Translations under genes and position numbers: made by a program | Assembly (NCBI GenBank): GCA_937863995.1 | Contig: CALMIK010000009.1 | Coordinates: 31,577 to 95,576 of the forward strand | From: an uncultured Chelatococcus sp. | GTDB lineage: Bacteria; Pseudomonadota; Alphaproteobacteria; Rhizobiales; Beijerinckiaceae | DNA length: 64,000 nt | Reading direction: 5' to 3' | In this document: positions 13,166-31,746 of the stretch, piece by piece | How positions within the stretch are numbered: the stretch's first letter is position 1 | How the letters are laid out: each line of letters starts with the position of its first letter | The notes under the pieces: generated by a model | What the model was told of the DNA's origin: nothing | The model's database searches: none | Seen by the model: only the letters and a program-made list of their open reading frames with translations

Positions 13166-13198
13166 TCCGGGCAGGCCGTATCGACTGGAGATTCTGAC

Positions 13199-13852
13199 AT
13201 GCACAAGCTGTTCTACTCCCCCGGCGCCTGTTCGCTCGCCGTGCATATCGTGCTGGAGGAAATCGGCGCACCTTACGAAGCGGAGGTTCGGTCCGCGCGC
13301 AACAGCGAGGGCACGGCCACGCCGGATTACCTCGCGCTCAATCCAAAAGGCCGCGTGCCCGCCCTCACCGGCGTCGGCGGCGACGCCGGCGGCGCGAAGG
13401 GGCTGCTGACCGAGGTCGGCGCCATTCTCACCTTTCTGGCGCGCAGCCATCCCGAGGCCGAACTGCTCCCGCCTACCCCGGAGGGCGCGGCGCGCTGCGC
13501 CGAATGGATGAGCTGGTTGTCGGTGGATCTGCACGGCGTCGGCTTCGGCCAGCTCTGGCGTCCGCACCGTTTCGTCGACGACCCGGCGCTCCATGAGGCG
13601 GTGTCGGCCAAGGGCCGCTCCAACATCGAAGCCGCCTACGATCATATCGAACGCATCCTGTCGGATGGCCGAGACTGGGCCGTGCCGAGCGCCTATTCCG
13701 TGGTCGATCCGTATCTTCTGGTTTTCTGGCTTTGGGGTGCGCGGGCAGGCTTTGACATGCAGGCTCGTTGGCCCCACTGGGCGCGCCTCATGGAGAAGGT
13801 GAAGGCGAGACCGGCGGTGACGCGCGCCCTGCAAATCGAGGGTCTGGCGTAA
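13199..13852 (+). CDS. Glutathione S-transferase (beta class-like)
   Basis: Contains LFYSPGACSLAVHI, NPKGRVPAL and LTEVGAIL. Confidence 0.9.
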   Translation: MHKLFYSPGACSLAVHIVLEEIGAPYEAEVRSARNSEGTATPDYLALNPKGRVPALTGVGGDAGGAKGLLTEVGAILTFLARSHPEAELLPPTPEGAARCAEWMSWLSVDLHGVGFGQLWRPHRFVDDPALHEAVSAKGRSNIEAAYDHIERILSDGRDWAVPSAYSVVDPYLLVFWLWGARAGFDMQARWPHWARLMEKVKARPAVTRALQIEGLA

Positions 13853-13874
13853 GCATCACAGCCATGCCGTCTGC

Positions 13875-14852
13875 TCAGGCCGGAACCGGGTGAGCCGTCT
13901 GCGTGCCGGCGGCTTTCGGTCGCGGCTGCGCTGACAACTCGTCCATCAGCATGCCGCGAAGGATCATGCCGCCGAGGCCCAGCGGGCGCGCCTTGCGGTG
14001 CACCAGATAACAGGTGTTGGCGGTGCGGCTGCCCTCGATCTGCAACTCGCGGATGTCGCCTTTCTCCACCCAGTGGCGGGCGAAGGCGATCGGCACGATG
14101 CCAAGATAGCGCGACGAGAGCACGAGCAGCATGCGCGACAGGATCGTGGGCGCCCTCGCCTTGATCTTCAGGCCGCGCACGAATTCGGAATACCCTTCCT
14201 CCTGCGTGACCTCGGCGGCGACGAAGCCGTGCCGGCGCAGTTCTTCCGGGGTCAGCGCCGCGTCGTCGCAGCCGAAAAGCGGGTGGTCCTTGCCGCAGAA
14301 GATGCCCATCCGCTCCTCGCACACCGGGGTGGCGACGAGCGCGTCGCTGTGCCGGCCCAGCGCCGTGAACGCCAGATCGGCCGTTCCCTCGAGTACCGAG
14401 GCATAGATGTGATCGGGCGAGGTCATGCGAATGTTCAGCGTCAGGTCGGCATAGCGTTCGCCGACGCGGGCAATCGCGCGCGTCAACGGTTCGCCGAATT
14501 CGAACAGGAAGCTGTCGTCGGCATAGAACGTGATCTTGTCTTCCAGTTTGTGAATCGCGGCACCGACGAAGTCGTTGAAGCGCCCGATCTCGGCCAGAAG
14601 CTGCACCGCCGCCGAATGCACCAGTTGCCCCTGCTCGGTAAGCTGGAATCCCGATCTTCCCCGCTCGCACAGGCGCATGGCAAGGCGTTCCTCCAACCGG
14701 GTCAATCCTAGGCTGATGGCCGACTTTCCCTTGCCCAACCGGGCCTGGGCCGCGGTGATGCCCCCAGCCTCGACGATTTCGACGAACTCGCGCAAGCCGG
14801 CGATGTCGGTGTCGGAAAGATTGCCGCGAAAGGGTTTCAGACTCGGGTTCAC
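13875..14852 (-). CDS. LysR-family regulator
   Basis: Contains EAGGITAAQARLG and LEERLAMRLCERG plus a substrate-binding domain; divergent from lhgO. Confidence 0.88.
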   Translation of the reverse strand: MNPSLKPFRGNLSDTDIAGLREFVEIVEAGGITAAQARLGKGKSAISLGLTRLEERLAMRLCERGRSGFQLTEQGQLVHSAAVQLLAEIGRFNDFVGAAIHKLEDKITFYADDSFLFEFGEPLTRAIARVGERYADLTLNIRMTSPDHIYASVLEGTADLAFTALGRHSDALVATPVCEERMGIFCGKDHPLFGCDDAALTPEELRRHGFVAAEVTQEEGYSEFVRGLKIKARAPTILSRMLLVLSSRYLGIVPIAFARHWVEKGDIRELQIEGSRTANTCYLVHRKARPLGLGGMILRGMLMDELSAQPRPKAAGTQTAHPVPA

Positions 14853-14979
14853 GCCACACTCCGGAATTTGGCCGATAGTTCCTATTTTATCAAACTTTGG
14901 TCAAGCAAACAGGTATCGACGTGGCGGAACGCATCGGCTACCCCATAAGGGTGGAAGATTGTGGCGAAAGTGAACAAGC

Positions 14980-16182
14980 GTGGCACGAGCGGATATCGTC
15001 GTTATCGGTGCAGGTATCGTTGGGCTTGCAACCGCCTTCTTTTTGAAGCGCTCGCGCCCGGAACTGAGCGTCGCGATCGTCGAGAAGGAACTGGAGCCGG
15101 GCAAGCACCAGACCGGTCATAACTCGGGCGTGATCCATGCCGGGATCTATTATGCGCCGGGCAGCCTCAAGGCCAACCTGTGCAAGGCCGGCGCCGCGCA
15201 GACCAAGCTTTTCTGCGAGGAAAACCACATTCCGTTCGATGTCTGCGGCAAGCTGATCGTCGCCACCGACGAGAAGGAACTGCCCGCTCTCGACAACCTG
15301 CGCCAGCGCTCCGAACAGAATGGCCTCGACACCCGCATGGTGGACAAGGCGGAGCTCGCCGAAATCGAACCCAATGTGGCGGGCGTGCGCGCGATTCTCA
15401 GCCCCGCCAGCGGCATCGTCAACTATGGCCTGATCTGCCGGGTGCTGCGCGACCGGCTATCGGAACAGGGCGTCACGTTCCATTTCGGCGCCCCGGTCAC
15501 GGGACTGCGCGAGACCTCGGGCGAAGTCACGGTCGAAACCGACAAGCTCAGCCTGACGGCCAGCCTGGTGGTGGCCTGCGCCGGCCTGCAGGCCGACCGC
15601 ATCGCCGACATGTCGGGCCTTGCCGACGACTTCCGCATCATTCCGTTCCGGGGCGAGTATTTCCGCCTGTCGGAGAAGGCCGGCAATCTGGTCAAGCACC
15701 TCATCTATCCCGTGCCCGACCCGTCGCTGCCCTTCCTCGGCGTGCATCTGACCAAGATGATCGGCGGCTACACGACAGTGGGCCCGAACGCGGTTTTCTC
15801 TTTCGGACGCGAGACTTACGACGGCAACGGCATCGTGCTGGCCGACACCGCGCGCAGCCTCGCCTTCCCCGGCTTCTGGAAGCTGATGGCGCGCTCCGTC
15901 AAGCCCGGCATCCACGAGATGCGCGGCACGCTCTCGCGACGCGTCTATCTGGAGCGCTGCCAGCGTTACTGCCCGTCGCTGGCGATGGATGACCTTCAGG
16001 CCTATCCGCCTGGCATCCGCGCCCAGGCTGTCGGCCGCGACGGCAAGATGATCGACGACTTCCTCATCCGCCAGACCGCGCGCACCGTGCATGTGTGCAA
16101 CGCGCCCTCGCCCGCGGCCACATCCGCATTCCCGATCGGCGCCGACATCGGCGGCCGGATTCTCGCGAAGCTCGCGAGCTGA
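14980..16182 (+). CDS. lhgO: L-2-hydroxyglutarate oxidase family FAD enzyme
   Basis: Contains IGAGIVGLA, HQTGHNSGVIHAGIYYAPGSLKA, PFRGEYF, LPFLGVH and NAPSPAATS. Confidence 0.85.
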   Translation: MARADIVVIGAGIVGLATAFFLKRSRPELSVAIVEKELEPGKHQTGHNSGVIHAGIYYAPGSLKANLCKAGAAQTKLFCEENHIPFDVCGKLIVATDEKELPALDNLRQRSEQNGLDTRMVDKAELAEIEPNVAGVRAILSPASGIVNYGLICRVLRDRLSEQGVTFHFGAPVTGLRETSGEVTVETDKLSLTASLVVACAGLQADRIADMSGLADDFRIIPFRGEYFRLSEKAGNLVKHLIYPVPDPSLPFLGVHLTKMIGGYTTVGPNAVFSFGRETYDGNGIVLADTARSLAFPGFWKLMARSVKPGIHEMRGTLSRRVYLERCQRYCPSLAMDDLQAYPPGIRAQAVGRDGKMIDDFLIRQTARTVHVCNAPSPAATSAFPIGADIGGRILAKLAS

Positions 16183-16270
16183 ATTTTCCCGCCATCCCGG
16201 CCTCCAGTCGGGACAGGCAGACCGCAATCCATGCGTGCCAGACGCATGCAATATAAAGGGAGCAACCGTC

Positions 16271-17650
16271 ATGAGCGAACTGAAGAACTTCGATCGCCCC
16301 CCCGAGGCGCGTGATATCGCCCACCATTTCCATGGCTATACCGATGCGAAGCGCCACGAGGAAATCGGGCCGCTGGTGATCGAGAGCGGTCAGGGAATTT
16401 ATGTCACGGACGCGTCCGGCAAACGCTACATCGAGGGGCTCTCGGGCCTGTGGAGCGTGGGCCTCGGCTTTCAGGAGCAACGGCTGATCGATGCCGCCAC
16501 GGCCCAGCTGAAGCGGCTGCCCTTCTACCATAACTTCGGCCACAAGAGCCACAACCCGGCCATCGATCTGGCCGAGCAGCTCATCGGGCTGGCTCATGTG
16601 CCGATGTCGAAGGTTTTCTACACGAACTCGGGTTCGGAAGCGAACGACACCGTGCTCAAGATGGTGTGGTACCGCTCCAACGCGCTCGGCAAGCCCGAGA
16701 AGAAGAAGGTCATCGCCCGCAACCGCGGCTATCACGGCGTGACCATCGCTTCCGCCAGCCTCACCGGCCTGCCGAACAACCACCGTTCGTTCGACCTGCC
16801 CATCGACCGTGTGCTGCACACCCTCGCGCCGCACTACTGGAAGGAGGGCCGCGACGGCGAGACCGAAGAGCAGTTCGCCACCCGCTGCGCCGAAGAGCTG
16901 GACGCGCTGATCCAGCGTGAGGGGCCCGACACCATCGCCGCCTTCTGGGCCGAACCTGTCATGGGCGCCGGCGGCGTCGTGGTTCCGCCGAAGACCTATT
17001 TCGAGAAGATTCAGGCGGTACTGGCGAAGTACGACATCCTCTTCGTCGCCGACGAGGTCATCTGCGGCTTCGGCCGCACGGGCGAGATGTTCGGCTCGAT
17101 CACCTACGGCATCAAGCCCGACGTCATCGTGCTGTCGAAGCAGATCACGTCGAGCTACGTGCCGTTCTCGGCCATCATGATGAACGACCGCTTCTACCAG
17201 CCCATCGCCGAGGAAAGCCACAAGATCAGCACCTTCGGCCACGGCTTCACCGCCGGCGGGCATCCGCTGGGCGCGGCTGTGGCGCTGGAGAACCTGGCGA
17301 TCATCAAGGAACGCGACCTCGTGGCCAACGCCCGGGACGTGGGCGCGCATTTCCGCGGCCGCCTGCAAACCCTGGCGGAAAGCCCGCTGATCGGCGAAGT
17401 GCGCGGCGTCGGCCTGATCGCCGCCATCGAGCTGGTCAACGACAAGGCCACGAAAACGGTCAAGACGCCCGGAGCGCTGGGCGGCCTGATGAACGCGGTG
17501 ATGCAGCGCAACGGCCTGATTTCGCGCAACATGGGCGACGCGGTGGCCTTCTGCCCGCCGCTGATCATCACGCGTGAGCAGGCCGATGAGCTGTTCGAGA
17601 TCATCGCCCGGTCGCTGCGCGACGTCGAAGCCGAAGCCGGCGTGGCTTGA
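16271..17650 (+). CDS. Class III PLP aminotransferase (omega-amine/putrescine transaminase-like)
   Basis: Contains YTNSGSEAND, GYHG, EPVMGAGG, ADEVICGFGRTG and LSKQITS. Start set at MSELKN. Confidence 0.9.
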   Translation: MSELKNFDRPPEARDIAHHFHGYTDAKRHEEIGPLVIESGQGIYVTDASGKRYIEGLSGLWSVGLGFQEQRLIDAATAQLKRLPFYHNFGHKSHNPAIDLAEQLIGLAHVPMSKVFYTNSGSEANDTVLKMVWYRSNALGKPEKKKVIARNRGYHGVTIASASLTGLPNNHRSFDLPIDRVLHTLAPHYWKEGRDGETEEQFATRCAEELDALIQREGPDTIAAFWAEPVMGAGGVVVPPKTYFEKIQAVLAKYDILFVADEVICGFGRTGEMFGSITYGIKPDVIVLSKQITSSYVPFSAIMMNDRFYQPIAEESHKISTFGHGFTAGGHPLGAAVALENLAIIKERDLVANARDVGAHFRGRLQTLAESPLIGEVRGVGLIAAIELVNDKATKTVKTPGALGGLMNAVMQRNGLISRNMGDAVAFCPPLIITREQADELFEIIARSLRDVEAEAGVA

Positions 17651-17665
17651 GACAGGATCACTTCA

Positions 17666-19111
17666 ATGTCACACACTGAAAACCTGAATTACATCAACGG
17701 CGAATGGGTTTCCGGCTCCGAATTCATCGACAACCGCAACCCGTCCGATCTGGACGATGTGATCGGCCGCTACGCCCAGGCGAGCCGTGAGCAGACCGAC
17801 GACGCCATCGCCGCCGCCAACGCCGCCCTGCCCGCATGGGCGGCGGCCACGCCGCAGTTCCGTGCCGAAATCCTTGAGCGGGTCGGCCTTGAGCTGATGG
17901 CGCGCCGCGAGGAGCTGGGCGAGCTGCTGTCGCGCGAAGAGGGCAAGATCCTCTCGGAGGGCATCGGCGAGGCCACGCGCGCGGCGCAGCTGTTCAAGTT
18001 CTATGCGCAGGAAGCCCTGCGCGTGGAAGGACTTGCGATCGCCTCGACCCGCCCCGGCGTGCGCATCGAAGTGCGCCATGAGCCTGTCGGCGTGGTCGGC
18101 ATGATTACGCCGTGGAACTTCCCCATCGCCATTCCGGCATGGAAGATCGCCCCGGCTCTGGCGTTCGGCAACACCGTGGTGTTCAAGCCGGCCGAGCTGA
18201 CGCCCGGCTGCGCATGGGCGCTGGCCGAGATCCTGTCGCGCGCCGGGGTGCCGGCTGGCGTGTTCAATCTGGTGATGGGCAGCGGCCGCATCGTCGGCGA
18301 CGCCATCGCGCGCTCGCCGGGCGTGAACGCCGTGACCTTCACCGGCTCGGAGGCGACGGGTCGCGGCGTGCGCAGCATCGTCGCCGAGCGTGGCGGCAAG
18401 GTGCAGCAGGAAATGGGCGGCAAGAGCCCGCTCGTGGTGCTGGACGACGCCGATCTGCAGAACGCCATCGACTGCGCCATCGGCGGATCGGTCATCTCGA
18501 CGGGGCAGCGCTGCACCTCGAACACCCGCATCATCGCGACGCCGGGCATTCACGACGCGCTCGTGGAAGGCATGGCGAAGCGGGCGCAGGGGCTGGTCGT
18601 GGGCAACGCGCTCGATCCCGCAAGCCAGATCGGCCCGGTGGTGGACCAGCGCCAGCTCGACACCAACCTGCGCTACATCGCCATCGCCGACGGCGAAGGC
18701 GCCGAGCGCCTGTGCGGCGGCGAGGTGCTGGAAAAGGCCCAGCGCGGCTTCTATCTGTCGCCGGCGGTCTACGCCAACTGCACCAACGAGATGGTCCACG
18801 TGCGCGAGGAAATCTTCGGGCCGGTGGTCAGCGTCCTCAAGGCGGCGGATTACGACGAGGCGCTTGCGATCGCCAACGACTCGAGCCTTGGCCTGTCGTC
18901 GGGCATCTGCACGAAATCGCTGAAATACGCCGAGGACTTCAAGACTCGCTCGACTTCGGGCATGGTGTTCGTCAACCTGGCGACGGCGGGCGTGGATTAT
19001 CATGTGCCGTTCGGCGGCCGCAAGGGATCGAGCTACGGCCCACGCGAACAGGGACGCGCGTCGCGCGAGTTCTTCACGACTTCGAAGACGGCCTATACCA
19101 ACCCGCTCTGA
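17666..19111 (+). CDS. Aldehyde dehydrogenase (2-oxoglutarate semialdehyde dehydrogenase/YcbD-like)
   Basis: Contains ITPWNFP, FTGS, EMGGK, GQRCT, EEIFGPV and VDYHVPFGGRKGSSYGPREQG. Confidence 0.88.
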   Translation: MSHTENLNYINGEWVSGSEFIDNRNPSDLDDVIGRYAQASREQTDDAIAAANAALPAWAAATPQFRAEILERVGLELMARREELGELLSREEGKILSEGIGEATRAAQLFKFYAQEALRVEGLAIASTRPGVRIEVRHEPVGVVGMITPWNFPIAIPAWKIAPALAFGNTVVFKPAELTPGCAWALAEILSRAGVPAGVFNLVMGSGRIVGDAIARSPGVNAVTFTGSEATGRGVRSIVAERGGKVQQEMGGKSPLVVLDDADLQNAIDCAIGGSVISTGQRCTSNTRIIATPGIHDALVEGMAKRAQGLVVGNALDPASQIGPVVDQRQLDTNLRYIAIADGEGAERLCGGEVLEKAQRGFYLSPAVYANCTNEMVHVREEIFGPVVSVLKAADYDEALAIANDSSLGLSSGICTKSLKYAEDFKTRSTSGMVFVNLATAGVDYHVPFGGRKGSSYGPREQGRASREFFTTSKTAYTNPL

Positions 19112-19233
19112 CGGGCCTACACTGCGCGGCGGGGCTCCCTGAAGGAGCGCCCGCCGTCGGGCCGTTCGTGCCACGCCATAAAGATAATGCATGTCGCCGT
19201 CAGGCTGTTTCATGCGGGAACACGGAGGACTCA

Positions 19234-20685
19234 ATGGTTGCACTTCTGGACAAGCGCAAGTTCTACATCAACGGGGAATGGGTCGATCCCGCCGTCGCGA
19301 ACGACCTCGAAGTCATCGACCCGTCCACCGAGGAACCGATCGCCGTGATCAGCCTCGGCGCGCAGGCCGATACCGACCGCGCGGTCGCCGCCGCGAAGGC
19401 AGCCTTCCCGGCATGGTCGAAGACGCCGCCGGCCGAACGCCTCGCATACGTGGAAAAGATCCTCGAGATCTACAAGCGCCGCGCCGCCGAGATGGCGGAA
19501 GCCATGACCCTTGAGATGGGCGCGCCGCAGGACATGTCGCTGGCGTCGCAGACGGGCGCGGGCGCCTATCACATCGAAACCTTCATCACGGCATTCAAGG
19601 ACTTCGAGTTCATCCGGCCCCTCGGCCCGCATGCGCCCACCACCATGATCGCCTGGGAGCCCATCGGCGTGGTCGGCCTCATCACGCCGTGGAACTGGCC
19701 GATGAACCAGGTCACGTTGAAGGTGATCCCGGCACTGCTGGGCGGCAACACCTCGGTGCTGAAGCCGTCCGAAATCGCGCCGCTCTCCTCGTTGCTGTTC
19801 GTCGAGATCGCGCATGAAGCCGGGCTGCCGGCGGGCGTGCTCAACCTCGTCAACGGCGATGGCCCGGGTGTCGGCACGCAGCTGTCGACCCATCCCGATG
19901 TCGACATGATCAGCTTCACGGGCTCGGCCCGCGCCGGCATCGCGATCTCGAAGGCTGCCGCCGACACGCTGAAAAAGGTGGCACTGGAACTGGGCGGCAA
20001 GGGCGGCAACCTCGTCTTCGCCGACGCCGACGCCGATGCGGTCGCGCGCAGCACGCGCCACTGCTTCAACAACTCGGGCCAGTCGTGCAACGCGCCCACC
20101 CGCATGCTCGTCCAGCGCGACATCTACGAGCAGGCCGTCGAAACCGCGGCCCGCGTCGCCAACGAGACCGTCGTCGCGAGCGCCCATCTGCCGGGCAAGC
20201 ACATCGGCCCCGTGGTCAGCAAGCAGCAGTGGGACAAGATCCAGGGTCTCATCCAGAAGGGCATCGAGGAAGGCGCGCGCCTGGTCGCGGGCGGCCCCGG
20301 CCTGCCCGAAGGCGTGAACCGCGGCTATTTCGTGCGCCCCACCGTGTTCGCCGATGTCGACAACCAGATGACCGTCGCCCGGGAAGAGATCTTCGGCCCC
20401 GTCCTGTCGATCATTCCCTTCGACACGGAAGAGGAAGCCGTCGAGATCGCCAACGATACGGACTACGGCCTGACCAACTACGTCCAGACGGCGGACGGCG
20501 CCCGCCGCAATCGTCTCGCCCGCCAGTTGCGCGCGGGCATGATCGAGATGAACGGCGAGGCACGCGGCGCGGGCGCAGCCTTCGGCGGCGTCAAGGCTTC
20601 CGGCAGGGCGCGCGAAGGCGGCGTCATGGGCCTCGAGGAGTTCATGGATTCGAAGTCCATCTCGGGCTGGAGCCTCAAGGACTGA
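19234..20685 (+). CDS. Second aldehyde dehydrogenase (different subfamily)
   Basis: Contains ITPWNWP, SFTGS, ELGGK, NSGQSCNAPTRM and EEIFGPV. Start set at MVALLDK, with a GGAGG RBS. Confidence 0.9.
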   Translation: MVALLDKRKFYINGEWVDPAVANDLEVIDPSTEEPIAVISLGAQADTDRAVAAAKAAFPAWSKTPPAERLAYVEKILEIYKRRAAEMAEAMTLEMGAPQDMSLASQTGAGAYHIETFITAFKDFEFIRPLGPHAPTTMIAWEPIGVVGLITPWNWPMNQVTLKVIPALLGGNTSVLKPSEIAPLSSLLFVEIAHEAGLPAGVLNLVNGDGPGVGTQLSTHPDVDMISFTGSARAGIAISKAAADTLKKVALELGGKGGNLVFADADADAVARSTRHCFNNSGQSCNAPTRMLVQRDIYEQAVETAARVANETVVASAHLPGKHIGPVVSKQQWDKIQGLIQKGIEEGARLVAGGPGLPEGVNRGYFVRPTVFADVDNQMTVAREEIFGPVLSIIPFDTEEEAVEIANDTDYGLTNYVQTADGARRNRLARQLRAGMIEMNGEARGAGAAFGGVKASGRAREGGVMGLEEFMDSKSISGWSLKD

Positions 20686-20733
20686 TCCTGCGGCGGAAAA
20701 AGTCGCGGCAGAACAAGTCGTATCATGCAAAGC

Positions 20734-20763
20734 CCCTGCCCCGCGCAAAGCCGCGGGGCAGGG
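20734..20763. terminator. GC-rich hairpin, probable terminator
   Basis: 12-bp stem CCCTGCCCCGCG/CGCGGGGCAGGG downstream of the ALDH gene; no strong U tract. Confidence 0.5.
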
Positions 20764-20912
20764 AAAGTAACGGACGTGTGCGGCCATACAGCAGGCGCCG
20801 CATCATTTCACGAACTGCAATTTTGCAAGAAAAGCCCGCTCATCGCCGCACCGCCACAGGGTTGGCGGCTGTTTTCGCTTGTCGAAATTCGAGCGAATTC
20901 GCGCATGAACAA

Positions 20913-20922
20913 TGATGCATCA
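20913..20922. promoter_or_regulatory. Upstream operator-like palindrome
   Basis: TGATGCATCA shares the GATGCATC core with the site at 21028-21043. Confidence 0.45.
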
Positions 20923-21016
20923 AAAATTTCGTCAAAATTTGTGCACTGCGAGAATTATTGTGTCTTTTCTTTTTTATTCAAAGAATTAACAATTTCACCT
21001 GACTGCTATTAAATTA

Positions 21017-21045
21017 TTGACAGTCATTTAAGATGCATCTTAATG
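21017..21045 (+). promoter_or_regulatory. Sigma70-like promoter with overlapping 16-bp palindromic operator
   Basis: TTGACA at 21017-21022; perfect palindrome TTAAGATGCATCTTAA at 21028-21043 overlapping a CTTAAT -10 candidate. Confidence 0.7.
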
Positions 21046-21109
21046 TAATGCTCAATGAGCGGCGATGCATAACACCATACGGGACGTCGCTTACAAGGGA
21101 GAGATATCA

Positions 21110-22705
21110 ATGCGGAAAGTCGTCACCCGGCTGGTAACAGCCGCCTTTTTGGGATGCGCGTTCGTCACTGGCGCCGCCGTGGCGCAGGACAGCGCCACCC
21201 CCGCCGCGATCACCAAGGGCGGCACGCTGAACCTGATCGTGCAGCCCGAGCCGCCGATGCTTATCGTCGGCCTCAACACCCAGGGCCCCACGCTTTACGT
21301 GGCCGGACAGATCTATCAGAGCCTCCTGACCTACGACAAGGATCTGAAGCCGCTGCCGCAGCTCGCCAAGAGCTGGGAAGTCTCCCCCGATGGCCTCACC
21401 TACACCTTCAAGCTGCAGGACGGCGTCAAGTGGCACGACGGCAAGCCCTTCACGGCCAATGACGTGGTGTTCGCCGCCACCGAATTTCTCGTCAACGCTC
21501 ATCCGCGCTGGCGCCTGATCCGCGAAGCCTATGTCGAGAGCGTGACCGCGCCCGACGATCTGACCGTGGTGTTCAAGCTGAAGAAGCCTTTCTCGGCCTT
21601 CCTTTACGGCTTCGAGCTCAGCTCGTTCCCCATCATGCCGGCGCACATCTACAAGGGCACCGACTACCGCACCAATCCGGCCAATGCCACGCCCGTCGGC
21701 ACCGGCCCCTACAAGCTCAAGGAATGGCGGCGCGGCAGCTTCGTTCATCTCGTGCGCAACGAGGATTACTGGAAAAAAGATCAGCCTTATATCGATGATC
21801 TGTACTTCCGCGTGATTCCGGATGCGGCCTCGCGCGCCATCGCCTTCGAGCAGGGCACGGTCGACATGCTGCGCGGCGGCGATGTCGAGGGCTTCACCAT
21901 CAACAGCCTGTCCTCGCAGCCGGGTATCCAGACCACCACCGCCGGCTGGGAATACTTCTCGCCGCAGATGTTCCTGCAGCCGAACCTGCGTCTTGAGGTC
22001 TTCAAGAACAAGAACGTCCGCAAGGCGATGTATCACGCGCTCGACCGCGACTTCATCGTGAACGCGATCTTCTTCGGCCAGGGCAAGCCGTCCACCGGTC
22101 CCTTCGCGGAAAGCATGCTGTTCCACGATCCCAACATCCAGCAGTATCCGTTCGATATGGACCTGGCGAAGAAGCTGATTGCCGAATCGGGCGTCGATCT
22201 CTCCAAGCATCCGATCCGTCTGCTGGGCCTGCCCTATGGTTCGAGCTGGGACCGCCTCACCGAATACGTGAAGCAGCAGCTTGAGGAACTTGGCTTCGTC
22301 GTCAGCATCCAGGCTGTGGACGCGGGCGGCTGGCTGCAGAGCATCGGCAAGTTCGATTTCGACCTCGCCTTCAGCTTCCTGTACCAGTTCGGCCACCCGG
22401 CGCAGGGCGTGTCGCGCATCTACTACAGCGACAACCAGGTGCAGGGCACCCACGCGGGCAACAACGGCGGCTTCGAGAACGCGGAAGTCGACGCGCTGTT
22501 CCGCAAGGCCGCCGATGCGCTGACCGACGCCGAAGCCGCGGCTGCCTACACCAAGGTGCAGCAGGTTCTGGCCGAGGAAGTGCCGATCCTGTGGATCTTC
22601 GACATGAAGAACACCACCATCTACCGCGACAAGGTGAAGAACCCGGTTCGGACCGCCATCGGCTTGAACGAACCGATGGACGACGTCTGGCTGTCCAAGA
22701 AGTAA
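21110..22705 (+). CDS. Dpp/Opp-family (family 5) ABC substrate-binding protein
   Basis: Signal peptide ending AVAQ; LAKSWEVSPDGLTYTFKL, KWHDGKPFTANDV and PVGTGPY. Confidence 0.92.
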   Translation: MRKVVTRLVTAAFLGCAFVTGAAVAQDSATPAAITKGGTLNLIVQPEPPMLIVGLNTQGPTLYVAGQIYQSLLTYDKDLKPLPQLAKSWEVSPDGLTYTFKLQDGVKWHDGKPFTANDVVFAATEFLVNAHPRWRLIREAYVESVTAPDDLTVVFKLKKPFSAFLYGFELSSFPIMPAHIYKGTDYRTNPANATPVGTGPYKLKEWRRGSFVHLVRNEDYWKKDQPYIDDLYFRVIPDAASRAIAFEQGTVDMLRGGDVEGFTINSLSSQPGIQTTTAGWEYFSPQMFLQPNLRLEVFKNKNVRKAMYHALDRDFIVNAIFFGQGKPSTGPFAESMLFHDPNIQQYPFDMDLAKKLIAESGVDLSKHPIRLLGLPYGSSWDRLTEYVKQQLEELGFVVSIQAVDAGGWLQSIGKFDFDLAFSFLYQFGHPAQGVSRIYYSDNQVQGTHAGNNGGFENAEVDALFRKAADALTDAEAAAAYTKVQQVLAEEVPILWIFDMKNTTIYRDKVKNPVRTAIGLNEPMDDVWLSKK

Positions 22706-22720
22706 TCCGGCTGGCGACAA

Positions 22721-22743
22721 CCCCGGAAGCTCTGCTTCCGGGG
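22721..22743 (+). terminator. Intergenic hairpin after the SBP gene
   Basis: 10-bp stem CCCCGGAAGC/GCTTCCGGGG followed by a pyrimidine tract. Confidence 0.55.
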
Positions 22744-22810
22744 CCTTCTTCCCGATTTCGAATCAAGACTATCCCATTCAAGTCCAAGCGTAGTATGGAG
22801 CCGAGATCCT

Positions 22811-23779
22811 ATGCTGAACTTCACCTTGCAACGGATCGGCAAGGCGTTCGTGGTGATCGTAGGTGTGATCATCCTGAACTTCCTTCTGATCAAGCTTGCA
22901 CCGGGCGATCCGGCGGCAATTCTTGCCGGCGAGGCAGGTTCCGGCGACCCTCAGTTCGTTGAAAACCTCCGGCGTCAGTTCGGTCTGGACCAGCCGGTGC
23001 CCGTGCAGCTCTGGAACTATCTCTCCGGCGTGCTGACGGGGGACCTGGGCTTTTCCTATCGCAACCAGGTTCCTGTTCTCGACCTCATCCTGCAACGCCT
23101 GCCCGCGACCTTGCTGCTGACGGGCGCCGCCTTCGTCTTTTCGCTGGCCACGGGCATGCTGTTCGGCGTGCTGGCTGCCCGCCATCGCGGCACCGTTCTG
23201 GACAGCATGATCACCACTCTCGCGCTGATCTTCTACGCGACACCGCTGTTCTGGATCGCGCTGATGTCGGTGCTGCTGTTCTCGATCAACCTCGGCTGGC
23301 TTCCGCCCTTCGACATGGAGACCATCGGCGCGGGCTACACCGGCTGGCGGCGCGTGCTCGACATCGCCCACCACCTGATACTGCCCACCGTGACGCTGGG
23401 GCTGTTCTACACCGCCATCTACACCCGCCTGACCCGCGCCTCGATGCTCGAAGTCATGGGTCTCGATTTCGTCAAGACAGCGCGCGCCAAGGGCGTGCCG
23501 GGCCAGCGCATCATCCGCCGCCACGTGCTGCGCAACGCTGTCCTGCCGGTCTTCACCTTCGCCAGCATGCAAGCCGGCCAACTCGTGGGCGGCGCGATCC
23601 TCACCGAAACCGTCTTCGCCTGGCCCGGCATCGGCCGGCTGATGTTCGATGCCCTGATGCAGCGCGACTATCCGGTGCTTCTGGGGGTGTTTCTGATTAC
23701 CGCCATCGTCGTGGTCGTGGTCAATTTCATCACCGATCTGCTTTATCGCGTCGTCGACCCGCGCATCGGCATCTCCTGA
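22811..23779 (+). CDS. Dpp/Opp ABC permease (DppB-like)
   Basis: Contains APGDPA, FGLDQP and the EAA-loop TARAKG...HVLRNA. Confidence 0.92.
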   Translation: MLNFTLQRIGKAFVVIVGVIILNFLLIKLAPGDPAAILAGEAGSGDPQFVENLRRQFGLDQPVPVQLWNYLSGVLTGDLGFSYRNQVPVLDLILQRLPATLLLTGAAFVFSLATGMLFGVLAARHRGTVLDSMITTLALIFYATPLFWIALMSVLLFSINLGWLPPFDMETIGAGYTGWRRVLDIAHHLILPTVTLGLFYTAIYTRLTRASMLEVMGLDFVKTARAKGVPGQRIIRRHVLRNAVLPVFTFASMQAGQLVGGAILTETVFAWPGIGRLMFDALMQRDYPVLLGVFLITAIVVVVVNFITDLLYRVVDPRIGIS

Positions 23780-23788
23780 GGTCAGAGC

Positions 23789-24621
23789 ATGCAGTTCATC
23801 AAACGCTTCTCACAAAACTACGGTGCCGTTCTCGGGCTGATCATTCTGGCAGCCATCGTGTTCCTCGCCGTCGCCGCGCCGCTGCTCTATCCCGGCAATC
23901 CGTGGAAGACCGTGGGCATGCCGCTGCTGCGCCCGCTGCAGGACGCCAAGTTCCTGCTCGGCACCGACATGCTGGGCCGCGACATCGCCGCCGGCATCGC
24001 CCACGGCGCCAAGGTCTCGCTCCTGATCGGCGTGGTCTCGACGCTGGTCGCGGTGCTGATCGGGGTGACGATCGGCGCGGTCGCCGGCTTCTATGGCGGG
24101 CGCGTCGACGACATCCTGATGCGCTTCACCGAGTTCTTCCAGATCATCCCGACCTTCGCCATGGCGGTGGTGCTGGTGGCGATCTTCAGCCCGAACTTCA
24201 TCTCGATCACGCTCGCTATCGCGGTCGTCTCGTGGCCCAGCGTGGCGCGCCTCGTGCGGGCTGAGTTCCTGTCGCTGCGCCAGCGCGAATTCGTGCAGGC
24301 CGCCGTGGTTATCGGCCAGAGCGGGCCGCGCATCATCCTCACCCAGATCCTGCCGAACGCGGTTTCCCCGATCATCGTCACCGCCTCGCTGATGGTGGCG
24401 ACGGCGATCCTGACCGAAAGCGCCCTGTCGTTCCTGGGCCTCGGCGACCGCAACATGATGAGCTGGGGCTTCATGATCGGCGCGGCGCGCACCATGCTGC
24501 GCGAAGCGTGGTGGATGAGCTTCTTCCCCGGCTTTGCAATCCTGCTCGCGGTGCTGGCGATCAACCTGATCGGCGAAGGCATCAACGACGTGATGAACCC
24601 CCACCTGCGCGGGAGGAAGCA

Positions 24622-24625
<4 letters not shown>
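23789..24625 (+). CDS. Dpp/Opp ABC permease (DppC-like)
   Basis: Contains LGTDMLGRDI, REFVQAA...G and ILPNA. Confidence 0.92.
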
Positions 24626-26285
<1,660 letters not shown>

Positions 26286-26286
<1 letters not shown>

Positions 26287-27995
26287 TGTCCGCAACCGAT
26301 ATTGCTCCGACGGAAGACCATGGCGGAGAAATCCTTGTAAGGCAGCTTGCACTGCACGGGGTCGATACCGTCTTCATGGTTCCGGGCGAGAGCTTCCTGC
26401 CCTGCATCGACGCGCTCGGCGAGCGCCGGGACACGATCCGCACGGTCCCCTTCCGTCAGGAAGGCGGCGCCGCCTATGCCGCCGAGGCATATGGCAAGCT
26501 CACCGGCAAGCCCGGCGTGTGTTTCGTGACGCGCGGGCCGGGCGCTACCAACGCTTCCATCGGCCTGCATGTCGCCCATCAGGACGGCACGCCGCTGATC
26601 CTGTTCGTCGGCCAGATCGGCTCGGATACCACGGAGCGCGCCTGCTTCCAGGAAATCGACTACCGCCAGATGTTCGGCCCGGTGACGAAATGGGTCGCGC
26701 AGATCGACCGGACCGACCGCATCCCGGAATTCGTCGCCCGCGCCTTCGCCATCAGCCGCAGCGGCCGCCCCGGCCCGGTCGTTCTGGCGCTTCCTGAAGA
26801 CACGCTCTGGGGCCGCGCCGCGGTGGCGGACGTGCAGCCGTTCGAACGCCCGCATCCCCGCCCCGCCGCAAGCGACATGGCGGCGCTGGCCGCCCTGCTG
26901 CAGAAGGCGCAGCGTCCCTTCGTCATCGCGGGCGGAACCGGCTGGACCGACGAGGCGCGCGCGAACCTCGCGGCCTTCGCTGAACGCTTCGACCTGCCGG
27001 TCGGCGTGTCGTGGCGCCGGCAGGAGGTTTTCGACAACCGCCACCCGCACTTTGCCGGCCACATCGGCTATGGCGTCGACCGGGCGCTGGCGCAGCGCAT
27101 CACGGATTCGGATCTGCTGATCTCGGTCTGCTCGCGTCTCGACGAGCCGACGACCGAGGGCTACAAGCTGGTTGAGAGCCCGCTGCCGCGCCAGACGCTG
27201 GTGCACATCCATCCCGACAGCAACGAGCTCGGCCATGTCTATCGTCCGGCGCTGGCGATCAACGCCGATCCGGTGGGCGCGGCGGCCGCGCTTGCCGAGT
27301 TGCAGCCCGCCGGCGCGCTAAACTGGTCCGGCCTGGCGAAATCGGCCAACGACGACTACCGGCAATCGCGCCAGCCTCATCCGACCACCTCGGCCTTCGA
27401 TCTGGCGCAAGCCTGCCTGCACATGGCCGAGGTGCTGCCCGAGGATGTGTTCGTGTCGGTGGGCGCGGGCAACTTCGCGCTGTTCCCGCACCAGTTCCTG
27501 CAGTTCTCGCACCTGGGCACGCAGGCGTCTCCCATCTGCGGCTCGATGGGCTATGGCCTGCCGGCCGCCATCGCCGCGAAGCTCGCCTTCCCCGCGCGCG
27601 AGGCCATCGCCTTCGCCGGCGACGGCTGCTACCAGATGACGATGCAGGAGTTCGGCACCGCCAGCCAGCACCGTCTGGGGATCGTGGTTCTGGTGTGCAA
27701 CAACCGCGCCTGGGGCACGATCAAGGCGCATCAGGAGCGCGAATACCCCGCGCGCGCCTTCGCGCTGGAGCTTGAAAACCCCGATTTCGCGGCCATCGCC
27801 CGAGCCTATGGCTCCCACGGCGAGGTGGTCGAGAAGACGGAGGACTTCGCCGCCGCCTTCGCCCGCGCCCGCGCCTTCGCCCGCGAGCAGCAGCGCCCGG
27901 CCCTGCTCGAGCTGCGCTACGACGTGGAATACATCACGCCCGACACCCGCCTGAGCCAGATCACCGAAAGATCGCTGGCCAAGGCTGCAAAGTAA
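26286..27995 (+). CDS. Thiamine-diphosphate-dependent enzyme (acetolactate synthase-like superfamily)
   Basis: Contains VPGESFL, RQEGGA, TRGPGATN and the ThDP motif GDG...NN. The start overlaps the upstream TAA. Confidence 0.88.
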
Positions 27996-28017
27996 CCGCT
28001 TGTAAGGAGCCCGCACC

Positions 28018-29067
28018 ATGCGCGCCTTTTATCATCCCGATCAGGCAATCCATAATCCGCTGCAGTTCATGCGGTACGGACGCATCTGCGACGCGACCGA
28101 CGTGCCCGCGCGCACCGAAGAGCTGCTGAAGGCGTTGGCGCGGCTTGGCGTAACGCCCGAGGAGCCCGAGGACTACGGCCGCGCGCCGGCCGAGGCCGTG
28201 CACGCCACGCATTATCTCGACTATCTGGAAACCGCCTATCAGCGCTGGATTCAGCTGCCGGAGCACGGCCCCGAGGTTCTGCCGAACACCTTCCCCTACT
28301 GGAACGGCGATCCCTCGCGCGACTCGCGCCCGCCCTGCCCCACCGATCAGCTTCTCGCTCAGACAGGCTACTATCTGGGCGATCTGGCGGTGCCGATCGG
28401 CGAGCACACGTGGCTCTCGGTGCTGCGCTCCAGCCACACCGCCAGCGCCGGCGCGGATGCGCTGCTGGCGGGTGAGCGCCTCGCCTACGCGCTGTGCCGC
28501 CCCTCGGGCCACCACTGCCGCGTCGACCGCGCGACGGGCTTTTGCTACATGAACAATTCCGCCATCGCCGCGCAGCGCCTGCGCGGCAAGTACGGCAAGG
28601 TCGCGGTCCTCGACATCGACGCCCACCACGGCGACGGCACGCAGCAGATCTTCTATCGCCGGAACGATGTCCTGACGGTCTCGGTGCATGTCGACCCCGA
28701 CCACTACAACCCGTTCTTCACCGGGCGCGTCGATGAAACCGGACACGGCGACGGCGTGGGCTTCAACCTGAACATCCCGCTTGCGCCGCACACCGGCAAC
28801 GACGCTTTCCTCGCGGGCGTGCGCAGCGGCGTCGAGGCGGTTCGGGCCTATGGCGCCGAAGCCCTCGTGCTGGCGCTCGGCTACGACACCCACATCGAAG
28901 ACCCGCTCAGCATCGTCGAAGTCACGACCGAAGCCTTCAGCCAGGCCGGCACACTGGTCGGCAGTCTTGATCTTCCCGTACTTGTTGTGCAGGAAGGCGG
29001 CTATCAGGTATCGGTTATTGGCGATTGTCTTGAGGGTTTTCTTCGGAGCCTGCAAACTCGTGCTTGA
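28018..29067 (+). CDS. HDAC-fold amidohydrolase (acetylpolyamine amidohydrolase-like)
   Basis: Contains RPSGHH, GFCYMNN, LDIDAHHGDGTQ, LGYD and QEGGY. Confidence 0.88.
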   Translation: MRAFYHPDQAIHNPLQFMRYGRICDATDVPARTEELLKALARLGVTPEEPEDYGRAPAEAVHATHYLDYLETAYQRWIQLPEHGPEVLPNTFPYWNGDPSRDSRPPCPTDQLLAQTGYYLGDLAVPIGEHTWLSVLRSSHTASAGADALLAGERLAYALCRPSGHHCRVDRATGFCYMNNSAIAAQRLRGKYGKVAVLDIDAHHGDGTQQIFYRRNDVLTVSVHVDPDHYNPFFTGRVDETGHGDGVGFNLNIPLAPHTGNDAFLAGVRSGVEAVRAYGAEALVLALGYDTHIEDPLSIVEVTTEAFSQAGTLVGSLDLPVLVVQEGGYQVSVIGDCLEGFLRSLQTRA

Positions 29068-29107
29068 AACATTGAGAAGGATGGGGGCCTCCGGATTGAA
29101 AGAAAGC

Positions 29108-29812
29108 ATGGGCGACAAGACCAGCCTTGCCGAGGAGGTCTATGACCGGCTTGCCTACGATCTGATGACGGGGGCGCTTCCTCCGGGCACCCGGCTGAAG
29201 ATCCGGGATCTCGCGGACAAGATGGGGGTCAGCGTGACCCCCATCCGGGACGCGGTTCTGCGGCTGGTCAACAACGGCGGCCTGCTGTTCCAGAGCCCCC
29301 GCGACATCCGCGTGCCCTTGCTGGAGCGCTCGCGTTACCTCGAGATCCGCACGATCCGCATCGAGCTGGAGGGCCTCGCCGCCGAACGCGCGGCGCAGTT
29401 CGCCGACTCGGACGACATCGCTTATCTGGAAAGCATCCTCGCCGAAAACGAAGAAGCGATGGCGGCGAGGGATCATCTGCGCGCGCTGCGGACGAACCAG
29501 AAGTTCCATCTCGCGCTGCCGGAAATCGCCGACATGGCCACGTTGCGCAGCCTGCTCGAAAACCTGTGGCTGCAGATGGGGCCGCTGATCTCGTCGGGCT
29601 ACGACGCAGGCGGACGCGTGATGATCGACCATCACTACACCATTCTGGAGGCGATCCGCATGGCCGACGGCGCGGCCGCGCGCGCGGCGATCCGCAACGA
29701 CATCATGATCGGCGGCGAGGTGCTTCTGCTGCGCGGCGCGCTCGCCGGCGAACTGGGGCGGGGAACCGGCCTCGCGGCGGCAAAGCGCCCCTCTCCGTTG
29801 CTGGCCAAATAG
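29108..29812 (+). CDS. GntR-family (FCD) regulator
   Basis: Contains LPPGTRLKIRDLADKMGVSVTPIRDAV plus an FCD region (NQKFH...DHHYTI). Confidence 0.9.
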   Translation: MGDKTSLAEEVYDRLAYDLMTGALPPGTRLKIRDLADKMGVSVTPIRDAVLRLVNNGGLLFQSPRDIRVPLLERSRYLEIRTIRIELEGLAAERAAQFADSDDIAYLESILAENEEAMAARDHLRALRTNQKFHLALPEIADMATLRSLLENLWLQMGPLISSGYDAGGRVMIDHHYTILEAIRMADGAAARAAIRNDIMIGGEVLLLRGALAGELGRGTGLAAAKRPSPLLAK

Positions 29813-29825
29813 CTGGCCAAATAGC
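29800..29825. repeat. 12-bp tandem duplication across the gntR stop codon
   Basis: GCTGGCCAAATA at 29800-29811 and 29812-29823. Confidence 0.9.
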
Positions 29826-29850
29826 CCGCCTGCCGCTGACGAAGCCGGCG

Positions 29851-30678
29851 TCAGCCGTTCCCGGTTGCTTCGGCGATCTCCAGCGAGCGCTGGACGAGGG
29901 CGCGCAGTTCGCCGCCGATCCCGCTCGCGCAACCGAGCACCGGGCCACCGGCGAGAAGCTCCGCGCCTGTTGACGGGAACGGAGCCGTCCATCCGCCCGC
30001 CTCGCGGATCATGAGCAGCCCGGCCACGCAATCCCACGCATTCATGTGCGCCTCGTAGTAGCCGGCAAGCCGGCCGCTCGCGACTTCCGCCAGCATGAGC
30101 GCGCCGGAACCATTGCGCACGAACATTCCGCCGGCTTCGAGCAGCAGCCGGACAAAGGCCGCGATGCGCTCCGCCGGCACGCGGAAGTTGGCGCCAACAC
30201 CGATGAGGCCGGTGTCGATGCCGGCAGTAGCGTCGACACGCATCGGCTCGCCGTTCAGGAAGGCGCCGCCGTTGCGGCGCGCCACGAAGAGATCGCCCGT
30301 CGTCGGCCTGTGGATCAGGCCCAGAACCGTCTCGTCGCCGTCCATCACCCCGATGGAAATGCACCACTGGTCCAGCCCGTGCACGAAGCAGCTCGTGCCG
30401 TCGATGGGATCGACCACCCACAGGAAGCCCGACGAGCCGGCGGCAAGCCCCTGTTCCTCGCCGAGAATGCCGTCGCCCGGAAACGCCGCGCCGACACGCG
30501 CGCGGATCAGTTCCTCCACCGTCCTGTCGGCCTCGCTGACGATGTCCTGCCCGCTCAGCTTGGCCTCGGTTTGCAGCGACGAACGGTCGGCATAGTAGGC
30601 AAGCGCCTTCCGGCCGGCTTCGAGAACGATGTCCCTCGAGAGGACAAATCGCGGATCGTCGGCAAATTCGTTGCTCAT
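29851..30678 (-). CDS. Inositol monophosphatase family protein
   Basis: Contains ILGEE, WVVDPIDGT and AWDCVAG. Start set at MSNEF. Confidence 0.9.
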   Translation of the reverse strand: MSNEFADDPRFVLSRDIVLEAGRKALAYYADRSSLQTEAKLSGQDIVSEADRTVEELIRARVGAAFPGDGILGEEQGLAAGSSGFLWVVDPIDGTSCFVHGLDQWCISIGVMDGDETVLGLIHRPTTGDLFVARRNGGAFLNGEPMRVDATAGIDTGLIGVGANFRVPAERIAAFVRLLLEAGGMFVRNGSGALMLAEVASGRLAGYYEAHMNAWDCVAGLLMIREAGGWTAPFPSTGAELLAGGPVLGCASGIGGELRALVQRSLEIAEATGNG

Positions 30679-30707
30679 GATTTCCTTTGAGACAGTTGGG
30701 AGCGGCA

Positions 30708-31736: not shown

Positions 31737-31746
31737 GACCGTCTCC

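Follow-up and report, generated by a model that had tools for sequence, protein, structure and literature searches.

Introduction

Acetylpolyamine amidohydrolases (APAHs) have a well studied structure and specificity (PMC11532494), and in Pseudomonas aeruginosa they allow growth on acetylcadaverine and acetylputrescine (PMC4784309). A gene of the APAH branch is found in an uncultured Chelatococcus sp. within an island of 12 neighboring genes, located at positions 13875–29812 (~13.9–29.8 kb) of the window, i.e. the whole 64,000 nt stretch of contig CALMIK010000009.1 that was analyzed. The island also encodes a Dpp-type ATP-binding cassette (ABC) importer, a thiamine diphosphate (ThDP) enzyme of the PRK08199 family, a class-III omega-transaminase (termed AT3 here), two aldehyde dehydrogenases (ALDH1 and ALDH2), an LhgO-type oxidase, and regulators of the LysR and GntR families. 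The island most likely serves the import and breakdown of an N-acetylated amino compound; this general mechanism is put forward tentatively, at somewhat less than an even chance.

The window deacetylase appears to share the fold and catalytic machinery of known APAHs (M. ramosa APAH, P. aeruginosa PA0321 and PA1409, and B. pseudomallei 3MEN), and also their catabolic role, the removal of an acetyl group so that the amine serves as a nutrient. The difference lies in the setting, as the window gene shares its cluster with genes for a Dpp-type importer and a ThDP enzyme and not with those for a PotF-type importer. An APAH with such a linkage is not described in the literature searched, and no gene for a 4-acetamidobutyrate or 5-acetamidovalerate deacetylase (EC 3.5.1.63) was found there.

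The fungal N6-acetyl-lysine pathway consists of acetylation, transamination, oxidative decarboxylation to 5-acetamidovalerate, and deacetylation (EC 2.6.1.65, 3.5.1.63). The likeness to the island is that the distal amine stays acetylated until the chain has been shortened. However, the island has no acetyltransferase or N6-acetyl-lysine aminotransferase, and because it does carry an importer, an exogenous acetylated substrate is suggested.

The products of the csiD-lhgO-gabDTP operon of E. coli take lysine or cadaverine via 5-aminovalerate, glutarate and L-2-hydroxyglutarate to 2-oxoglutarate. Here too an L-2-hydroxyglutarate oxidase gene is clustered with a class-III transaminase gene and an aldehyde dehydrogenase gene. 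The island differs in that CsiD is missing, the transaminase matches the omega-amino-acid:pyruvate group and not GabT, and the aldehyde dehydrogenase is nearer to alpha-ketoglutarate semialdehyde dehydrogenases than to GabD.

The arginine transaminase pathway of P. aeruginosa (AruH, AruI, KauB, GbuA, GabT, GabD) shows the same succession of a 2-oxo acid, a ThDP decarboxylase, an aldehyde dehydrogenase, a hydrolase that unmasks the omega-amine, a transaminase, and a second aldehyde dehydrogenase. GbuA, which has the arginase fold, and HDAC-type (histone deacetylase-type) enzymes form one superfamily. In the island the mask would be acetyl and not guanidino, with the deacetylase replacing guanidinobutyrase, but an AruH equivalent is absent and the ThDP enzyme is not an AruI orthologue. 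A further comparison is with phosphoethanolamine/5-phosphohydroxylysine phospholyases and their kinases, a pair found beside the deacetylase clade elsewhere but not in the window.

An earlier note on this DNA had read the cluster as one for catabolism of an N-acetylated amine or amino acid, and family memberships as well as linkage bear this out. Its author recognized no described operon with this combination of genes, and none was found in the literature searched.

Proposed pathway

The island is predicted to form two transcription units, each with its own regulator (LysR and GntR), since a 424 nt gap between them carries GC-rich hairpins and an AT-rich promoter-like region. Operon 2, under GntR control, would provide Dpp/Nik-type ABC import of a small zwitterionic N(omega)-acetylated amino compound, the acetyl group of which most likely stays on as a protecting group through the first steps. 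The ThDP enzyme would convert the 2-oxo acid derived from this compound to an aldehyde, ALDH2 would oxidize the aldehyde to an omega-acetamido acid, and the APAH-type deacetylase would split the latter into an omega-amino acid and acetate. Operon 1, under LysR control, would complete the pathway: AT3 would transaminate the omega-amino acid to a semialdehyde, ALDH1 would oxidize the semialdehyde to a C5 dicarboxylate, and LhgO would oxidize L-2-hydroxyglutarate to 2-oxoglutarate. Keeping the acetyl group past the decarboxylation step would be expected to prevent cyclization of a 2-oxo-omega-amino acid. We infer the substrate, the order of the steps, the decarboxylase role of the ThDP enzyme, and which aldehyde dehydrogenase acts where. 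Foremost among the substrate candidates is N6-acetyl-L-lysine or a related hydroxylated compound, with N6-acetyl-lysine itself held to be less probable than the general mechanism.

Conservation of the island in other genomes

For comparison with other genomes, loci were fetched that contain homologues of the deacetylase, AT3, the ThDP enzyme or LhgO; gene calling used a codon-usage model trained on window sequence, and the called genes were clustered. The same succession of 11–12 genes recurs, at protein identities of 74–92%, in Mesorhizobium sp. SB112, Falsochrobactrum tianjinense, F. shanghaiense, and Aquamicrobium sp. LC103; together with the window this amounts to five genomes in four genera. 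Recurrence of the same gene order at this level of identity argues that the arrangement is not due to chance.

Comparison of the loci suggests a core module (importer, ThDP enzyme, deacetylase and ALDH2) and a separable second module (LysR, LhgO, AT3 and ALDH1) that can stand alone. The core is also kept in Enterovirga, Microvirga, Chelatococcus albus and Paracoccus sp. Z118; in Enterovirga, LhgO and ALDH1 are missing. Microvirga species and C. albus display the order importer-ThDP enzyme-deacetylase-ALDH2-GntR, with ALDH2 situated at the 3′ side of the deacetylase gene, and genes for a carbamoylase-type M20 hydrolase, an APH-type kinase and a class-III protein come after GntR. The vicinity of these clusters also encodes an EamA carrier, a small cupin and an ArgE/DapE-type hydrolase. 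Most orthologous loci carry a GntR gene on the 3′ side of either the deacetylase or the ALDH2 gene.

The second module is found in a different setting in Rhodobacterales, where LysR/LhgO, AT3 and ALDH1 flank the genes of a PotD/F-type ABC importer, often together with a short-chain dehydrogenase gene; these clusters lack both a deacetylase and a ThDP gene. AT3 is accompanied by LysR at 60–85% identity in most loci, and several Paracoccus genomes have AT3 and its LysR directly beside the deacetylase gene. The Bordetella cluster consists of the importer, a GabT-like transaminase, a cupin, the deacetylase, EamA, AT3, and a GhrA-like 2-hydroxy-acid dehydrogenase, with a PuuC-like aldehyde dehydrogenase in 3 of 5 Bordetella loci. 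AT3 is paired with a GhrA-like 2-hydroxy-acid dehydrogenase in locus L110 as well.

These arrangements bear on whether the two operons act together at all. They may be two independent modules, in which case operon 1 would take a hydroxylated omega-amine or amino acid straight to L-2-hydroxyglutarate, and operon 2 would degrade an unrelated N-acetyl compound and borrow only AT3. The Rhodobacterales clusters, self-contained with a PotF-type importer, are what would be expected here, as are Enterovirga and Microvirga, which keep operon 2 without LhgO and ALDH1, the separate regulators and promoters, and Paracoccus sp. Z118, in which the two halves are on different scaffolds. However, the joined order in five genomes of four genera is not readily explained by independence, nor are the AT3-LysR pair adjacent to the deacetylase gene in Paracoccus and the AT3 homologue in the Bordetella deacetylase clusters. 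Independence of the modules is considered improbable. The earlier note had staked its joint pathway on the two halves being linked elsewhere, and the result is divided: they are joined in the five genomes, but separable where LhgO-AT3-ALDH1 stands alone, where ALDH2 travels with the importer half, and in Z118.

Clusters without AT3, ALDH1 and LhgO often carry a kinase together with a phospholyase-like class-III protein. This pair is found beside the deacetylase clade in Microvirga, Chelatococcus, Pararhodobacter, Aquincola and loci from metagenome-assembled genomes (MAGs). The class-III protein matches the phospholyases 5G4I (E-value = 2e-115) and 6TOR (E-value = 7e-114), with the next matches at about E-56. 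Kinase/phospholyase pairs turn compounds of the type H2N-CH2-CH(OH)-R into aldehydes. The pair seems to be an alternative to the set of AT3, ALDH1 and a hydroxy-acid oxidoreductase.

Two further observations were made in these loci. Two IS240/IS6-family transposase genes are found directly upstream of the importer-ThDP-deacetylase cluster in Microvirga lupini (locus L014, positions 192–2393), which fits mobility of the island. In Paracoccus chinensis (locus L070, positions 17002–18441) and matching Paracoccus loci, a gene for an amidohydrolase of the chlorohydrolase/deaminase family (PRK06151, 384 bits) sits inside the Dpp-like importer operon, with the alternative ThDP gene and that of the deacetylase as neighbors, a hint that certain versions of the cluster act on an amidine- or guanidine-bearing relative of the substrate.

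The deacetylase

The five best PDB matches of the deacetylase are all APAHs (3MEN, E-value = 5.5e-90; 6PHR, 9GKZ, 3Q9B and 3Q9C), and the protein is ~40–48% identical to known APAHs. Alignment to 3Q9B and 3MEN shows that the catalytic set is intact, with the tandem His, the Asp-His-Asp Zn ligands and the Tyr found in the segments GHH, DIDAHH, GYDTH and QEGGY. The clade to which the window deacetylase belongs displays RPSGHH instead of RPPGHH, as well as an inserted L2 loop (PYWNG..RPPCP).

Positions corresponding to Glu106 and Glu117 of the M. ramosa enzyme are Leu and Ala in the window deacetylase. Both of these acidic residues serve to bind the distal nitrogens of a polyamine. Loss of the two residues was considered as evidence against a polyamine substrate and was dropped, as an APAH paralog linked to a PotF-type importer in the same genome (see below) is also without both. 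The role of Glu106 in M. ramosa APAH has been described, and Pseudomonas sp. ApaH carries His at this position (PMC11532494), which makes loss of Glu106 a weak discriminator as well.

The clade is rare. Among 400 genomes sampled evenly across the class, none has a copy with more than 48% identity, and a copy is missing altogether from three genomes in the same family. A scan of ~186,000 species genomes gave ~45 deacetylase loci at an identity of at least 53%, situated in Hyphomicrobiales, Rhodobacterales, Rhodospirillales-like MAGs and Bordetella. The scatter of a rare clade over these groups points to horizontal spread.

The importer and the question of a polyamine substrate

The importer displays the features of the Dpp/Opp type, i.e. 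a family-5 binding protein, permeases with OppC_N/BPD_transp_1_N, and an oligo_HPY ATPase, here fused. The binding protein is nearest to the NCBIfam models NikA, Opp4A and GsiB, all of them under cut-off, and gives 81–101 bits with the DppA and OppA models (cut-offs about 950–1000). Its best PDB match is 5ISU (E-value = 1.5e-51). The fused ATPase matches the GsiA and YejF models along their length. These similarities place the binding protein, on present comparisons, in the NikA/GsiB/AgaA-like small-ligand branch of family 5, with NikA, GsiB, AgaA and HbpA as nearest relatives. The nearest relatives of the importer appear to bind small carboxylate-bearing ligands, which favors an acetyl-amino acid.

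A canonical acetylpolyamine-type cluster is found elsewhere in the same genome (contig C37, positions 11690–20001). It consists of a class-III transaminase, two PotF-type binding proteins, an ABC ATPase, two permeases, an aldehyde dehydrogenase, and an APAH paralog that is 41–43% identical to the window deacetylase. Since the genome already has this cluster, the Dpp-linked island probably serves a different, non-polyamine substrate.

An acetyl-diamine must be weighed nonetheless. N-acetylcadaverine or N-acetylputrescine would be imported, AT3 would act on the free end, and ALDH2 would give the omega-acetamido acid; after deacetylation by the APAH, AT3 and ALDH1 would produce the dicarboxylate, with the ThDP enzyme as an accessory. 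A comparable route is part of polyamine catabolism in Candida boidinii. One omega-transaminase and two aldehyde dehydrogenases fit the scheme, and so do the close solved relatives of the deacetylase, which are without exception APAHs, and the ability of APAHs to support growth of P. aeruginosa on acetylcadaverine and acetylputrescine. But the importer is of the Dpp/Nik type and not of the PotD/F type, and the genome already contains the PotF-type importer/transaminase/ALDH/APAH set. Moreover, the ThDP gene, which shows the tightest linkage to the deacetylase and gives way to a non-orthologous ThDP gene in other loci, would be left without a task, and LhgO would be unexplained. An acetyl-diamine is for these reasons held to be unlikely.

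A zwitterionic acetyl-amino acid is favored over a plain acetyl-diamine because of the cluster on contig C37, because AT3 scores higher against omega-amino-acid than against polyamine transaminases, because the binding protein falls in the small-ligand branch of family 5, and because no task would fall to the ThDP enzyme in a diamine route.

The ThDP enzyme

The ThDP enzyme gives 796 bits with the PRK08199 model (NF006052; cut-off 539), and its best PDB match reaches only 208 bits, so that it has no close solved relative. Orthology to AruI was rejected (PRK07524 model, 245 bits; cut-off 500), as was orthology to acetolactate synthase or glyoxylate carboligase, the models of which are far under their cut-offs. 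The enzyme is tentatively assigned as a 2-oxo-acid decarboxylase.

The best evidence that the ThDP step is integral to the pathway comes from loci without a PRK08199 enzyme. A non-orthologous PRK07586-type ThDP enzyme (675 bits) takes its place beside the importer or deacetylase gene in other Chelatococcus species, in several Paracoccus species and in locus L022, and such replacement argues that this step is needed.

A trio of deacetylase, omega-transaminase and ThDP enzyme also formally matches the dissimilation of N-acetyltaurine. For an N-acetyl-sulfonate of this kind, deacetylation and transamination to a sulfo-aldehyde would be followed by an Xsc-like ThDP step. The window enzyme does show weak matches to the Xsc models, but at 248–264 bits against cut-offs of 620–676 it is rejected as an Xsc orthologue. 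The cluster has no phosphate acetyltransferase or sulfite-handling gene, and LhgO and the two aldehyde dehydrogenases would be unexplained. An N-acetyl-sulfonate substrate is therefore barely credible.

A paralog of the ThDP enzyme (PRK08199, 769 bits) is found on contig C31 (positions 22031–36404) of the same genome. None of its neighbors was identified by BLAST against the locus gene set. Judged from the translations alone, they appear to be two hydantoinase/oxoprolinase-like subunits, a class-I aminotransferase, an FAD-linked (flavin adenine dinucleotide-linked) oxidase and a polar-amino-acid ABC importer. This context fits a 2-oxo-acid role for the paralog and names no substrate.

AT3 and the two aldehyde dehydrogenases

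The best PDB match of AT3 is 5GHF (695 bits, E-value = 4e-208), which we take to be an Ochrobactrum anthropi omega-transaminase. It is followed by 6G4B (579 bits), presumably the Pseudomonas 6-aminohexanoate aminotransferase. Scores are 461 bits with 21FT (GABA transaminase POP2) and 402 bits with 9J4Z (polyamine:pyruvate transaminase). AT3 thus appears closer to omega-amino-acid transaminases than to polyamine transaminases.

ALDH1 gives 486 bits with NF052305 and 485 bits with NF042993, its nearest models (2,5-dioxovalerate dehydrogenases), both under cut-off, and 331 bits with the succinate-semialdehyde dehydrogenase model TIGR01780. Across loci, ALDH1 accompanies LhgO and AT3, and ALDH2 accompanies the importer, ThDP and deacetylase genes.

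The transaminase and ALDH1 are also central to a scheme in which deacetylation comes first. The APAH would free lysine, AT3 would be a lysine epsilon-aminotransferase and ALDH1 would yield 2-aminoadipate; transamination would give 2-oxoadipate, from which the ThDP enzyme would produce glutarate semialdehyde and ALDH2 glutarate. The ThDP enzyme and both aldehyde dehydrogenases would thereby be used, and the kinase/phospholyase pair adjoining the deacetylase clade in other genomes is in keeping with it. One characterized animal relative of this pair converts 5-hydroxylysine to 2-aminoadipate semialdehyde. GabT-like enzymes of the Chelatococcus and Bordetella versions match a 2-aminoadipate transaminase model (458 bits), but the window cluster is without such a transaminase. 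Nor is any lysine 6-aminotransferase model among the best 25 family matches of AT3, and ALDH1 gives 300 bits with the piperideine-6-carboxylate dehydrogenase model, the cut-off of which is 730. With LhgO again unexplained, initial deacetylation to lysine is very unlikely.

LhgO and the source of L-2-hydroxyglutarate

LhgO gives 546 bits with NF008726 (cut-off 299), covering model positions 2–387 of 389, and matches PDB 8W75, the Drosophila L2HGDH, with an E-value of 8e-84. In the alignment to 8W75 all six of the residues Ser88, His92, Tyr289, Leu299, His302 and Arg393 are conserved. In the Drosophila enzyme these residues provide the contacts to the two carboxylates and to the C2 oxygen of L-2-hydroxyglutarate (PMC10726252). 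Thus the window LhgO is predicted to be a genuine L-2-hydroxyglutarate enzyme with an intact binding site, and the possibility that it is misnamed and acts on another hydroxy acid was dropped on the strength of the six conserved residues.

The supplier of its substrate is less readily found. The CsiD glutarate hydroxylase (PF08943) is absent from the genome itself and from eight others in which lhgO lies beside AT3 (0 of 9), which rules out CsiD as a source of L-2-hydroxyglutarate in these genomes. LhgO copies with at least 63% identity adjoin AT3 in 10 of 11 loci, and LhgO tracks AT3 and ALDH1, not the ThDP gene. The simplest explanation for a true L-2-hydroxyglutarate enzyme with this linkage is that AT3 and ALDH1 themselves yield 2-hydroxyglutarate from a hydroxylated C5 omega-amino acid.

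Several of these findings weigh against the pathway as proposed. With CsiD absent, glutarate cannot reach LhgO by the known route, and the end step of the earlier note, from glutarate via L-2-hydroxyglutarate to LhgO, falls for want of the hydroxylase. Family-model searches place neither aldehyde dehydrogenase in the GabD/DavD semialdehyde dehydrogenase subfamily, which also disfavors the typical oxidation of glutarate semialdehyde assumed there. At the other end, the cluster has no alpha-aminotransferase (EC 2.6.1.65), amino-acid oxidase or dehydrogenase to form the 2-oxo acid. Its sole transaminase is the omega-type class-III AT3, for which a side activity on the alpha-amino group is possible. 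The route via 2-oxo-6-acetamidohexanoate is therefore retained in part: candidate genes are present from decarboxylation to omega-amino-acid oxidation, but not for the maker of the 2-oxo acid or the CsiD end step. In addition, the PRK08199 family is without a characterized member, and its homologues at ~50% identity sit in heterogeneous wider contexts. Finally, LhgO and ALDH1 are missing in the core-bearing Enterovirga and Microvirga and are present without the core in Rhodobacterales, and operon 1 may serve another substrate.

A complete route to 2-oxoglutarate can be drawn for a lysine-type compound that is acetylated at N(epsilon) and hydroxylated in its chain, with N6-acetyl-5-hydroxylysine, or a different compound bearing an H2N-CH2-CH(OH)- head, as the model. 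ThDP decarboxylation, oxidation by ALDH2 and deacetylation would lead to 5-amino-4-hydroxypentanoate, which AT3 would convert to 2-hydroxyglutarate semialdehyde, ALDH1 to 2-hydroxyglutarate, and LhgO to 2-oxoglutarate. All six enzymes would then act in one line and L-2-hydroxyglutarate would be formed without CsiD. Such a substrate would also explain why sister clusters have an amino-alcohol kinase and a phospholyase in place of AT3, ALDH1 and LhgO, and why AT3 repeatedly has a 2-hydroxy-acid oxidoreductase as its partner (LhgO in the island, a GhrA-like enzyme in Bordetella). Natural (5R)-hydroxylysine, however, would give D-2-hydroxyglutarate and not the L form, and because of this the hydroxylated substrate is regarded as quite doubtful. 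The preferred reading is still the general one, breakdown of an N-acetylated amino compound with the acetyl group kept on through the first steps.

Layout of the locus and regulatory DNA

The features of the island are listed in Table 1. All of the components named in the earlier note were found at about the positions it gave, and the LysR and GntR regulators are additional. The start of the ThDP gene overlaps the stop of the ATPase gene by 1 nt.

Table 1. Genes and control regions of the island, with positions in the window
Feature	Position	Strand	Basis
LysR-family regulator	13875–14852	-	Pfam HTH_1 and LysR_substrate; divergent from lhgO
Divergent LysR/lhgO control region (putative)	14853–14979		ATAG-N3-CTAT inverted repeat, read from the sequence
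LhgO/L2HGDH-family FAD oxidase	14980–16182	+	NF008726, 546 bits; PDB 8W75 match
AT3, class-III omega-transaminase	~16271–17650 (start approximate)	+	Pfam Aminotran_3; PRK06105, 762 bits
ALDH1	17666–19111	+	Pfam Aldedh; nearest to 2,5-dioxovalerate (alpha-ketoglutarate semialdehyde) dehydrogenases
ALDH2	~19234–20685 (start approximate)	+	Pfam Aldedh; PDB 3I44, 675 bits
Inter-operon gap, 424 nt	20686–21109		GC-rich hairpins, AT-rich promoter-like region, palindromes
Family-5 solute-binding protein, Dpp/Nik/Gsi type, signal peptide	21110–22705	+	Pfam SBP_bac_5
DppB-like permease	22811–23779	+	Pfam BPD_transp_1 with BPD_transp_1_N or OppC_N
DppC-like permease	23789–24625	+	Pfam BPD_transp_1 with BPD_transp_1_N or OppC_N
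Fused DppD/DppF-like double ATPase	24622–26286	+	Two ABC_tran domains and oligo_HPY
ThDP enzyme, PRK08199 family, putative 2-oxo-acid decarboxylase	26286–27995	+	Three TPP_enzyme domains; NF006052, 796 bits
Zn-dependent HDAC-fold deacetylase, APAH branch	28018–29067	+	Pfam Hist_deacetyl (PF00850), 221 bits
GntR/FCD regulator, last gene of importer operon	~29108–29812 (start approximate)	+	Pfam GntR and FCD

GC-rich hairpins are found in the inter-operon gap at about 20732–20765 and 20851–20868. The first of these, just past ALDH2, is a long GC-rich inverted repeat (CCCCTGCCCCGCG..CGCGGGGCAGGG) without a T-run that looks like a repetitive extragenic palindromic (REP)-type element or a terminator.

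Two 10-bp palindromes lie 5′ of the binding-protein gene, TGATGCATCA at about 20913 and AGATGCATCT at about 21033. An ATGCAT site is present 5′ of this gene in 20 of the 31 other loci in which the gene was called, among them Paracoccus sp. Z118, Falsochrobactrum, Aquamicrobium, Mesorhizobium, Chelatococcus and Microvirga; TGATGCATCA is found in 8 of 32 and AGATGCATCT in 4 of 32 upstream regions (window counted), with the reservation that some of the loci in these counts are repeat fetches of the same genomes. The palindromes and the ATGCAT site are a candidate GntR operator.

The G+C content of the window is ~66%. Across positions 20001–24000, which hold importer genes, it is 0.61–0.62, compared with 0.65–0.69 for most of the remaining window, and this is compatible with acquisition by transfer. 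Directly downstream of the island on the minus strand (29851–31736) are an inositol-monophosphatase-family gene and a gene for a LacI-family regulator. As neither has a counterpart in any of the fetched loci, both are considered to be outside the island.

Significance

Every enzyme family in the island is ordinary, but the island itself is rare and modular. If the proposed pathway is correct, the island would provide the first bacterial genes for deacetylation of an omega-acetamido acid (EC 3.5.1.63-type) and for a ThDP decarboxylase that acts on N-acetylated 2-oxo acids. The PRK08199 family and a distinct APAH clade would gain a function, and a CsiD-independent source of L-2-hydroxyglutarate would come to light. 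The system is tractable, comprising six soluble enzymes, a single binding protein, and two regulators together with a candidate operator. Turnover of proteins and polyamines, wherever it takes place, releases acetyl-lysine and similar acetylated amines, and dedicated uptake and catabolism of such compounds would add a new element to the way in which soil and wastewater bacteria recycle nitrogen and carbon.

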